Shown here: one piece after another, positions 49,771 through 50,682 of the stretch
How the letters are laid out: every line of letters starts with the position of its first letter
Position numbering within the stretch: the first letter of the stretch is position 1
Assembly: GCA_965216325.1 (NCBI GenBank)
Contig: OZ244160.1
Coordinates: 992,001 to 1,056,000 of the forward strand
Direction: 5' to 3'
Origin: Coraliomargarita sp.
GTDB taxonomy: Bacteria > Verrucomicrobiota > Verrucomicrobiia > Opitutales > Coraliomargaritaceae
Length of the DNA stretch: 64,000 nucleotides
Position numbers and translations under genes: made by a program
The notes under the pieces: generated by a model
What the model was told of the DNA's origin: nothing
Database searches by the model: none
What the model saw: only the letters and a program-made list of their open reading frames with translations

Positions 49771-50682
49771 ATGATTATGGATATTTCAGATATGGGCTTT
49801 ACGGATGAGCTTAGTTCTCTCCAGCCCGGCATGAACATTGGCAACCTGCATGTTGTCAGTTTTCTTGGTAAAGGCGCGATTGGCGAAGTCTACCTTACTC
49901 AGCACGAGATTCTTGGGAAACAATTTGCGCTAAAGGTAATTCCAAAGGGATTTTCGCCTTCCGAGGCTGCTGAAAGCTTCAAACAAGCTGCGCAAATACA
50001 GATGCGCTTGTCGCACCCGAATATCATTCAAATCGATGATCTAGGGGAAGAAGACATGTTTTATTGGATGCGCATGGAGTATATCGAAGGCGAGTTGACG
50101 CCGTCGAACATGACGGTGCGCTCTCTTGATGATCTATTGAGAGCTGAGAATGGCTTTTTTACGCCAGATGAAATTAGTTATTATTTCTACTACGTGCTTC
50201 TGGGACTCGACCATGCACACAAGCAAGGAATCATCCACACAGCACTGAAGCCATCCAATTTAATGGTGGCCGAGGATGGTGTAAAAGTTGCGGAATTAGG
50301 TGTCACCGATTTGATTGGGCACGCATGGGATGATTTTCATCTTCTACGGACTAATCCGCTCCTGGAGCCAACTCCGTTTGATCCGCTGCCTGGCTTTAGT
50401 CGACAGTTGCCCACACTTTTGAATGTTTTTGATTACTACAGCCCCGAACAAAAGGCAGGCCAGAAGCCGACTGCACAAAGTAATCTCTACAGCGTAGGGT
50501 TGATGGCGTATAGAATGCTTACCGCGAGGGAGACGCTTTCATTTGATTTCCCATCCACACTTGTGGACGGGTTGGACCCTGCGTGGGATGAATGGATTGC
50601 CAAAGCAACTGCATATGACCCAGCTGCTCGCTTTGCTACCGCAGCAGAAATGCTCGAGGCTATGCCACGCGCTGAAGCTTAG
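49771..50682 (+). CDS. Hanks-type Ser/Thr kinase-fold protein, predicted pseudokinase
   Basis: LGKGAIGEVY, FALK, HPNII and YSPEQ present; HRD replaced by HTA, DFG by ELG. Confidence 0.88.
   Translation: MIMDISDMGFTDELSSLQPGMNIGNLHVVSFLGKGAIGEVYLTQHEILGKQFALKVIPKGFSPSEAAESFKQAAQIQMRLSHPNIIQIDDLGEEDMFYWMRMEYIEGELTPSNMTVRSLDDLLRAENGFFTPDEISYYFYYVLLGLDHAHKQGIIHTALKPSNLMVAEDGVKVAELGVTDLIGHAWDDFHLLRTNPLLEPTPFDPLPGFSRQLPTLLNVFDYYSPEQKAGQKPTAQSNLYSVGLMAYRMLTARETLSFDFPSTLVDGLDPAWDEWIAKATAYDPAARFATAAEMLEAMPRAEA

Follow-up and report, generated by a model that had tools for sequence, protein, structure and literature searches.

A predicted pseudokinase family of Opitutales, apparently maintained by selection in a five-gene cassette with an orphan ParA-type ATPase

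Several eukaryotic proteins of the kinase fold, ILK, STRADalpha, HER3 and JAK2 JH2, keep the glycine-rich loop (Gly-loop) and the lysine, bind nucleotide although the catalytic base, the DFG Asp or both are missing, and act as scaffolds or allosteric switches. The subject here is a bacterial protein that invites comparison with them, the product, 303 amino acids (aa) long, of a gene at 49771..50682 of a 64,000-nucleotide (nt) stretch of Coraliomargarita sp. DNA (GenBank assembly GCA_965216325.1, contig OZ244160.1, positions 992,001 to 1,056,000 of the forward strand), the whole of which is termed the window below. It has no specific sequence relationship to the eukaryotic four, and its partners and context are unrelated to theirs. 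Most likely it is a genuine, expressed and selectively maintained pseudokinase serving as a non-enzymatic adaptor or switch; that it is kept by selection without being catalytic, and acts within the five-gene cassette in which its gene is found, we consider probable, the specific adaptor picture being less certain.

Bacterial pseudokinases are largely unexplored in the words of a 2025 review (PMC12599244), the main text of which describes ActPs1-3, GLW, CP1, DYD and DLHK, reported from Actinobacteria, Firmicutes, Proteobacteria and Cyanobacteria, in addition to EssB/YukC, SidJ and SelO. Among the signatures given there are replacement of the beta3 Lys by Arg or its loss, deletion of DFG and a linked COG3899 or helicase domain; ActPs2, for instance, combines K->R and HRN with a deleted DFG, and CP1 is fused to COG3899. 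The same text counts as a pseudokinase, on sequence, a protein in which at least one of the VAIK Lys, the HRD Asp and the DFG Asp is missing. An atlas preprint (10.1101/2025.01.12.632604) deals, as its main text has it, with about 300,000 bacterial kinases, 42 families being distinguished and the rest termed 'Bac_Unique'. The words Verrucomicrobia, Planctomycetes and PVC (Planctomycetes-Verrucomicrobia-Chlamydiae) do not occur in the main texts of these two sources, supplementary tables aside, and a literature search yielded no paper on a verrucomicrobial pseudokinase.

A preliminary description of the locus had pointed to an intact open reading frame (ORF) in which GKGAIG, FALK, HPNII and SPE are retained and catalytic residues systematically lost. 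The frame does run uninterrupted from ATG to stop on the + strand, the four retained motifs (HPNII at residues 82-86) stand in the translation where they had been placed, and the substitutions are borne out by the alignments through which the kinase subdomains were assigned (phmmer against StkP; BLAST against the nearest canonical kinases). For the counts below, 121 aligned sequences were used, the window protein and the 120 listed of its 222 relatives. The features of the gene are as follows.

49771..50682, + strand: pseudokinase gene with a Hanks-type kinase fold, 303 aa, ATG-to-stop ORF with a Pfam Pkinase match.
49798..49833, + strand: N-terminal family motif FTDELSSLQPGM, residues 10-21, invariant or nearly so in the 121 sequences.
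49867..49893, + strand: Gly-rich loop GKGAIGEVY, residues 33-41 (GKGAIG 33-38), kept.
49924..49935, + strand: beta3 FALK, residues 52-55, with Lys55 kept and aligned to the VAIK Lys of canonical relatives.
49978..49992, + strand: alphaC FKQAA, residues 70-74, with Ala73 replacing Glu, aligned to FQREA of StkP.
50236..50259, + strand: catalytic loop HTALKPSN, residues 156-163, with Ala158 for the HRD Asp and with Lys160 and Asn163 kept, aligned to HRDLKPQN of StkP.
50293..50301, + strand: ELG, residues 175-177, at the place of DFG, with Glu175 for Asp, aligned to DFG of StkP.
50317..50421, + strand: activation-segment motif GHAWDDFH...PTPFDPLPGFSRxLPxLL, residues 183-217.
50440..50448, + strand: SPE, residues 224-226, the APE equivalent, kept and invariant in the 121 sequences.
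50479..50493, + strand: subdomain IX SNLYS, residues 237-241, with Asn238 for Asp, aligned to SDIYA of StkP.

Of the residues looked for in a canonical kinase, the beta3 Lys is thus present and the alphaC Glu, the HRD Asp and the DFG Asp are absent. The window protein is without two of the three residues named in the definition quoted above, and the family without the DFG Asp in 119 of 121 cases; by that definition, one drawn from sequence, it is a pseudokinase. Canonical phosphotransfer by it would not be expected, because the catalytic base and the alphaC Glu are missing. Nucleotide binding is another matter: the parts that would hold a nucleotide, the Gly-loop, Lys55, Lys160, Asn163 and a carboxylate, Glu175, at the DFG place, are conserved, and their conservation suggests that binding has been retained.

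Membership of the Hanks-type fold comes from profile and predicted structure alike. The PF00069 (Pkinase) match, over residues 27-256 (E 6.9e-29), scores 101.5 bits against a Pfam cut-off of 31.7, and an AlphaFold2 (AF2) model made with 71 family sequences is bilobal (mean predicted local distance difference test score, pLDDT, 82.1; predicted template-modelling score, pTM, 0.83), as anticipated for a kinase fold. Foldseek puts this model closest to the kinase domains of PknB, PknI and Stk1 at E about 1e-17 (TM-scores of 0.62-0.70 normalised to the query; for PknB E 1.3e-17 and TM-score up to 0.70/0.83), and StkP, Stk1, PknB and PknI are the best sequence matches among solved structures (phmmer E 2.5e-23). 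The pLDDT is below 50 at residues 1-14 and 189-209. The preliminary description had the protein stand-alone, which is right for the polypeptide, in which neither reading of the ORF nor Pfam finds a transmembrane segment or a domain beyond Pkinase, while the gene is fixed in a cassette of five.

How does the protein compare with its better known relations? With PknB, StkP and Stk1 it shares the bilobal fold, Gly-loop, beta3 Lys, HxxLKPxN frame, SPE and subdomain XI Arg; unlike them it is without the alphaC Glu, HRD Asp, DFG Asp, subdomain IX Asp, transmembrane segment and PASTA, and has instead the N-terminal motif and an invariant WDDFH...PLPGFSR. The nearest canonical kinases, multi-domain proteins of 30-42% identity, can be aligned over residues 15-300 and have the same C-lobe motifs, most of them with an equivalent of Trp186; their lengths are 302-1598 aa, only one of them not exceeding 303 aa, and they are without the two family motifs.

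With the named bacterial families, so far as the main text of PMC12599244 describes them, there is the common theme of decay of catalytic motifs at family level in a Hanks-type fold, and by the same descriptions the window family differs in keeping the beta3 Lys and in having ELG at the place of DFG. DLHK, like the window protein, is without a transmembrane segment; it keeps the HRD Asp and the Asn and is without the beta3 Lys; a Pseudomonas aeruginosa DLHK gene in an operon with an undefined ATPase is the nearest parallel printed there to the ParA-type cassette considered below. DYD is also without the alphaC Glu, has K->R and the DYD motif, and its beta3 residue is proposed to pair with the acidic residue of the DFG-equivalent motif. 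EssB/YukC of type VIIb secretion provides the example of a pseudokinase scaffold in a multi-gene machine (all PMC12599244), though it sits in the membrane itself, its Gly-loop is degraded, its activation loop shortened and its beta3 Lys missing, whereas the window protein is soluble with its nucleotide-binding features kept and its activation segment long. As far as these descriptions set it apart, the family is a new one within a recognised kind, and it may sit unnamed in supplementary tables. It is unusual in two respects, its link with a cassette that encodes a ParA-type ATPase and the way in which related lineages have degenerated in complementary patterns.

Conservation in the family is striking for where it falls. 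G33, G35, G38, E39, V40 and Y41 of the Gly-loop are each present in 120 of 121 sequences, as are Lys55 and Lys160; Pro161 and Asn163 are in all 121. At the alphaC position, 73, there is Ala in 106, Ser in 11, Val in two, Leu in one and Thr in one, never Glu; position 175 has Glu in 119 and Asp in two; and position 238 in subdomain IX has Asn in 120. In the activation segment G183, A185, W186, D187, D188, F189, P205, L206, P207, G208, R211, L213, P214 and L216 are invariant (121/121), and H184 (118), H190 (120), Thr201 (119) and S210 (120) nearly so. The preliminary description had remarked on a long insert here. Long it is, at 46 residues from ELG to SPE, but a peculiar insert it is not, because the DFG-to-xPE spacing of 144 canonical nearest relatives is similar (median 49, range 20-80); the length would be inherited from canonical relatives, and the invariant motif is what appears special. 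Among the first 80 of 150 cluster representatives, all 75 that are not of the family have the Lys, alphaC Glu, HxD, DFG, S/APE, subdomain IX Asp and subdomain XI Arg.

Position 158 behaves differently from the rest: 111 of the sequences have the catalytic Asp, six Ala and four Asn. The six with Ala are the window protein and its nearest relatives, among them the orthologue (78% identity) from the cultured Coraliomargarita akajimensis, and they form one clade (support 99 with FastTree, 95 with IQ-TREE on species-level loci). The change to Ala, shared by same-genus orthologues of 75-95% identity, occurred once and that to Asn at least twice, the trees needing two or three independent changes. 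In contrast with this genus-specific loss, all 39 species-level sequences of the window's GTDB family have Ala or Ser for the alphaC Glu, Glu for the DFG Asp and Asn for the subdomain IX Asp, so that on these alignments the replacements represented by Ala73, ELG and Asn238 are old and family-wide. The 'systematic' loss of the preliminary description is accordingly real in that four residues have been replaced, with the qualification that they were replaced at different times, and close orthologues with HRD and DFG uniformly intact, as would befit recent decay, were not found.

A search of 5.8 billion clustered proteins gave the 222 relatives, the 120 listed being 60-95% identical to the window protein, 266-330 aa long and, where named, assigned to Coraliomargarita, Thalassobacterium, Puniceicoccaceae, Opitutales or Verrucomicrobiota. 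The gene is present, always as a single copy, in 44 of 101 species-representative genomes of the window's GTDB family and in 13 of its 20 genera; in the small-genome genera searched it was not found (0/8, 0/7, 0/4, 0/4 and 0/2 genomes). In a library clustered at 50% identity the family amounts to one full-length cluster (56% identity) and three fragments, below which there is a sharp drop to the multi-domain kinases of 30-42% identity. A search across the order (301 genomes), with flanks, located the cassette in two further GTDB families as well, where its pseudokinases are 52-55% and 40% identical to the window protein.

These sister lineages are degenerate in another way. They have HDN or HEN in the catalytic loop, while alphaC Glu and subdomain IX Asp are present, as is the Asp of DxG (DYG, DFA). 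One sister family has in addition a paralogue outside the cassette (38% identity; loci L053, G084:C9, and L055, G211:C15), of 530-592 aa, in which the pseudokinase is followed by a Pro/Ala-rich linker, then a transmembrane helix and lastly, at the C-terminus, a small domain. Degeneration goes further still here, the catalytic loop reading HGN or HAN and the DFG site DAG, the alphaC Glu being absent and one genome showing Arg for Lys55, but both family motifs are intact. The N-terminal motif, in the form (F/Y)xDE(L/I/V)SSLQPG(M/I), and GH(A/S)WDDFH are kept in all sister lineages and in the paralogue, and TPFDPLPGFSRxLP(S/T)L in all but the 40% lineage. A connection between the loss of PLPGFSR there and strong divergence of the 342-aa cassette protein was entertained and dropped, a single genome being concerned.

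Both motifs, N-terminal and activation-segment, are absent from 12 canonical outgroups, against which IQ-TREE groups 44 motif-bearing sequences as one clade (SH-aLRT 100). The base of this clade is an unresolved three-way split, the placement of the 40% lineage is unsafe by reason of its long branch, and site 158 requires a minimum of 4 changes across the clade; the common ancestor may have been canonical, or may have had HxN with later reversal. On the sequences at hand every lineage is without at least one catalytic residue, though not the same one; what stays constant is the nucleotide-holding elements together with the two new motifs. The clade seems confined to Coraliomargarita/Puniceicoccaceae-like Opitutales and would have arisen from canonical PVC-type Ser/Thr kinases, gaining two new invariant motifs before separate lineages lost different catalytic residues.

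Such a mosaic might be viewed through the eyes of an enzymologist. Glu175 could replace the DFG Asp in metal binding and the alphaC Glu in pairing with Lys55, making the protein an atypical active kinase, in which case most members with HxD would phosphorylate a cassette partner, with the window's genus using another base or having lost activity recently. Retention of Asp158 in 111 of 121 sequences, with Lys55, Lys160, Asn163 and the Gly-loop nearly invariant, is in keeping with this, as is the faster evolution of the pseudokinase relative to its partners in the genus without Asp158. A Lys55-Glu175 pair would also agree with the observed co-variation, in which the sisters combine an alphaC Glu with a DxG Asp, and the window's family an alphaC Ala with Glu175. 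Such pairing resembles what PMC12599244 describes, in its main text, for DYD kinases and POMK, and SelO, SidJ, POMK, DLHK and the DYD models are precedents there for other modes of ATP binding or other chemistry. Even so we judge active catalysis of this kind unlikely. A Lys-Glu pair is of use for binding nucleotide no less than for catalysis, the window protein is without three residues of the canonical mechanism, and the most conserved parts of the family are its new motifs and not the catalytic centre. Site 158 has been replaced at least 3 times (to Ala once and to Asn at least twice in the family, with Asn in every sister lineage) while the other conserved positions stayed unchanged, and it can be argued from such repeated loss that selection acts on something other than catalysis; the catalytic Asp is also gone from the sister lineages and from the paralogue, although other residues there are canonical.

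Return to the idea of a maintained pseudokinase brings up the evidence for maintenance. For the window and the closest congeneric genome the proportion of nonsynonymous differences (pN) is 0.035 and that of synonymous differences (pS) 0.78, the latter saturated; in this pair of genomes the housekeeping neighbour HflX gives pN 0.057. Comparisons inside the genus give the pseudokinase gene pN values of 0.035-0.17 and pS values of 0.76-0.82. With pS saturated in all pseudokinase pairs (0.76-0.91) a numerical dN/dS is not computable, and what is used is the bound that pN lies far below pS, by which dN/dS must be very small and purifying selection strong, as far as sequence comparison can speak. 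In 115 sequences outside the window's clade, 146 positions are conserved to at least 90%, and among these only 158 is replaced in all six members of the clade; the window protein keeps 141 and differs at five (158, E221D, G252A, G300R and L301A). The Ala158 codons of four congeneric species are GCA, GCT, GCG and GCA, three different codons, and Ala itself has therefore been kept through synonymous turnover.

The loss of four canonical residues is what might be expected of a decaying relic, a kinase gene turning into a pseudogene. This is extremely improbable, being contradicted by the selection data: the matches in all 44 genomes are open frames without internal stops, pN is low against saturated synonymous change, nearly all the conserved positions persist, the turnover of Ala158 codons is synonymous, and there are RNA contigs on the gene. 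The preliminary proposal of a non-catalytic scaffold or switch that is not decaying has therefore held as regards maintenance, on the grounds of purifying selection and shared losses, its other elements, absence of catalysis and nucleotide binding, being suggested by conservation.

The gene keeps fixed company. On the + strand the cassette runs membrane protein, pseudokinase, 243-aa protein, ParA-like ATPase, 342-aa protein, with intergenic gaps of 20, 60, 41 and 20 nt. Its other members, and one further gene upstream, are these.

48294..48965, + strand: separate 223-aa protein with multiple transmembrane segments, giving a tblastn match inside the long upstream genes of other loci.
49208..49750, + strand: upstream Pro/Ala-rich membrane protein with one transmembrane helix and with conserved ends MAEKATLL..PPVAK and ..APNAPxxLKAPSKPKKRF, its stop 20 nt before the pseudokinase start.
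50743..51474, + strand: 243-aa cassette protein with an SH3/Tudor-like barrel mid-protein and a conserved acidic C-terminal tail.
51516..52436, + strand: orphan ParA/MinD-type ATPase, 306 aa, with the deviant Walker A NYKGGVGKTS.
52457..53485, + strand: 342-aa cassette protein, found in 35/36 loci, an RNA contig bridging its border with the ATPase gene.

The loci number 41, all from species-representative genomes; of those with room for the gene in question, 38 of 38 have the 243-aa gene 3' of the pseudokinase gene, 36 of 37 the ATPase gene and 35 of 36 the gene for the 342-aa protein, the sole miss coinciding with unreadable bases. Across the 101 family genomes pseudokinase and 243-aa genes are both present in 43 and neither is found in 55; three are discordant, one at a contig end, one with unreadable bases and one 81% complete. 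The cassette is accessory, being patchy within genera, and its tree groups species by genus where genus labels are known. Matches to both ClpC and HflX flank it in 11 of the 41 loci and HflX alone in a further nine. By the pattern of presence and absence the pseudokinase gene is inherited, and lost, together with its four neighbours.

RNA-seq contigs of a near-identical strain (at least 95% alike) cover the pseudokinase gene at 50054-50733. They derive from four small runs of one sample in one study of that related strain, fall on all five cassette genes and not on the adjacent HflX gene, and reach the highest depth of the stretch on the upstream gene, 49208..49750; a single contig spans the border of the ParA-type and 342-aa genes. 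Cover is non-uniform, 48588-49081 and 53528-55000 being left bare, and the contigs are a hint of expression, not proof. A scan of 47500-55200 for promoters and terminators gave 7 and 8 sites, where 7.5 and 8.0 are expected.

One of the neighbours is the ATPase. Its Pfam match to AAA_31 (E 1.1e-35) scores 123.6 bits against a cut-off of 27, with CbiA and MipZ matched in addition, its PDB sequence matches are Soj/MinD, and NYKGGVGKTS, which fits the deviant Walker A pattern KGGxxK[ST] with its signature Lys, is invariant in 12 orthologues, all of which place it among ParA/MinD-type ATPases; it scores below the NCBIfam equivalog cut-offs of all named ParA, MinD and BcsQ subfamilies. At 82-99% identity across the family it is the most conserved member of the cassette. 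In most bacteria ParA and ParB genes are side by side. Elsewhere in the genome of the window there are a ParB and another ParA-type (AAA_31) match, stronger than this one; the best ParA-type and ParB matches there (G000:C1:2452522-2453049 and 1210975-1211247) are about 1.2 Mb apart.

The other three partners have no match in Pfam, NCBIfam, PADLOC or PDB sequences. For the 243-aa protein the AF2 model (pLDDT 81) has a small barrel at residues 68-135 (best VIA-align Z 6.6) and no Foldseek match at E <= 0.001, its family profile finds nothing among PDB sequences at E <= 10, and the ESM Atlas offered nothing useful (best 0.75). A prediction of its complex with the pseudokinase scored 0.00, made without controls, and carries no weight for or against binding. 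The 342-aa protein has neither a Pfam nor a PDB sequence match; a suggested relationship to the RpoA C-terminal domain (ESM Atlas 0.85) was discarded when none of 69 members matched PF03118 at E <= 1, and the best PDB sequence match of its profile (E 0.023, over a 39-residue stretch) is not significant.

The upstream protein is conserved at its ends only, with the start MSEKATLL..PPVAK and the end ..APNAPSxLKAPSKPKKRF. Nine proteins could be read from 12 fetched loci, and counting hydrophobic segments by eye there are about seven in six of them (388-502 aa) and a single one in three, the single form being that of the window's genus and one other locus. The observation concerns the window and the loci L022, L023, L024, L025, L028 and L030. 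The ORF at 48294..48965 is 29-38% identical, over residues 5-94, to the long upstream genes by tblastn, and a separate, fast-evolving gene for a 219-223-aa protein with multiple transmembrane segments lies just upstream in two of three congeneric loci, so that in the window's genus the transmembrane domain seems to have been split off or replaced. Pfam recognises no family in the upstream membrane proteins, long or short, or in the 48294..48965 ORF. The RNA-seq strain has a 15-nt in-frame insertion at 49345 in the upstream gene, where 10 substitutions are also listed; its low-complexity linker varies even between near-identical strains.

In the 40% lineage (L056, G176:C2, ORF 5410-6897, minus strand) the pseudokinase is 495 aa long, with a C-terminal extension that is first acidic and then basic and whose sequence (..FGKPKAPAAKK..) recalls the basic tail with which the upstream protein of other genomes ends. 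By tblastn there is no homologue of the upstream gene at this locus, part of the flank being unreadable. The extension may be a fusion hint, from a single genome, that tail and pseudokinase work together.

A different sort of partner can be envisaged. Among eukaryotes the commonest arrangement pairs a pseudokinase with a kinase, and the protein might be a non-catalytic allosteric partner, decoy or substrate of an active Hanks kinase, with Thr201 and Ser210, conserved in 119 and 120 of 121 sequences, as phospho-acceptors. Candidates exist: at least 3 further Hanks-type kinase genes of the genome, read over their first 420 residues, keep the catalytic-loop Asp, two of them with VAIK or IAIK, HRD and DFG, and a third with HQDLKPDN and an N-terminal fusion region that we take to be PP2C-like. 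None of these kinases is linked to the cassette, however, and linkage and co-occurrence favour the four neighbours, which makes such a partnership rather improbable.

Accessory, patchy cassettes also bring anti-phage defence to mind, and the protein might be the kinase component of a system of the PD-T4-6, MADS or BREX type, with matches to PADLOC PD-T4-6 (E 2e-39) and mad6 (9e-35) and to NCBIfam MAD6 (6.8e-27). The matches span the generic kinase domain only, and fall far below the cut-offs (MAD6 94 against 460 bits, PglW 48 against 990). When five other neighbourhood proteins were scanned with PADLOC no specific defence family emerged, four having no match at all and the ParA-like protein a P-loop-level one to PDC-M28B (8.3e-08, residues 3-43). 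The constant chromosomal place, with its ClpC and HflX flanks where these are matched, the single copy and a tree that follows genera speak against defence, and an inactive catalytic centre would be unexpected for it; we hold a defence role very unlikely.

For the preferred reading, a non-catalytic pseudokinase acting within its cassette, the picture we favour is one in which it would be an adaptor or nucleotide-gated switch. The activation-segment and N-terminal motifs, flexible yet invariant, would serve as docking sites, an idea that arises because invariant sequence sits in a segment predicted to be flexible, and docking would couple the membrane protein, which has a basic C-terminal tail, to the ParA-type ATPase module. 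Several things weigh against us here. ATP binding, the absence of activity and all the protein contacts are inferred. Residual or atypical catalysis may persist in most of the family, because 92% keep the HxD Asp, Lys55, Lys160, Asn163 and Glu175. The step to an adaptor of the ParA module comes from gene linkage, because the partners are without recognisable function. The ratio of pseudokinase distance to the mean of three downstream partners is 1.98 in the genus (from 3 non-independent pairs) against 1.07 in other genera (28 pairs), and evolution about twice as fast in the window's genus would fit mild relaxation after loss of the Asp. Finally, the RNA contigs come from a single small sample, taken from a related strain, and DNA carry-over may be involved.

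Was catalysis dispensable from the start? A broader conception, which we put forward tentatively and without expecting it to be right in full, is that marine Opitutales use the cassette as a ParA/MinD-type machine for positioning or signalling, one so far undescribed, into which a kinase fold was recruited as nucleotide-gated adaptor between the ATPase and a polytopic membrane protein with, by eye, about seven hydrophobic segments. Catalysis would have been dispensable from the origin of the clade, and separate lineages would therefore have erased different catalytic residues: the HRD Asp in some, the alphaC Glu, DFG Asp and subdomain IX Asp in others, and, in the window's genus, the whole set of four, with the new activation-segment motif staying invariant throughout. 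If this were true, the family would be a natural mutational series for what a pseudokinase needs to work. In any event it overturns nothing known; what it offers is a clear-cut example from a phylum that the published classifications do not mention in their main texts (PMC12599244; 10.1101/2025.01.12.632604). Its catalytic base toggles between D, N and A among close relatives with the rest frozen, and sister lineages have lost a complementary set of residues. Fixed partners, an orphan ParA-type ATPase among them, provide concrete binding hypotheses, and since Coraliomargarita akajimensis is cultured the biochemistry is directly testable.

There are a few lesser observations on the cassette and its surroundings. 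Three contigs with an Opitutales-type cassette (L068, L073 and L079) are in metagenome-assembled genomes labelled Polaribacter, Zhongshania and Yoonia; two of them have adjoining ClpC or HflX matches of about 75-90% identity, and the contigs are probably mis-binned. At L029 (G023:C50) genes at 3040-4572, not seen at other loci, adjoin the cassette, and are presumably for a microcompartment shell-vertex protein and associated products. In the window itself G+C content is 0.47-0.48 at 32001-34000 and again at 50001-54000, compared with 0.51-0.57 elsewhere, and the second of these dips covers the downstream cassette genes.

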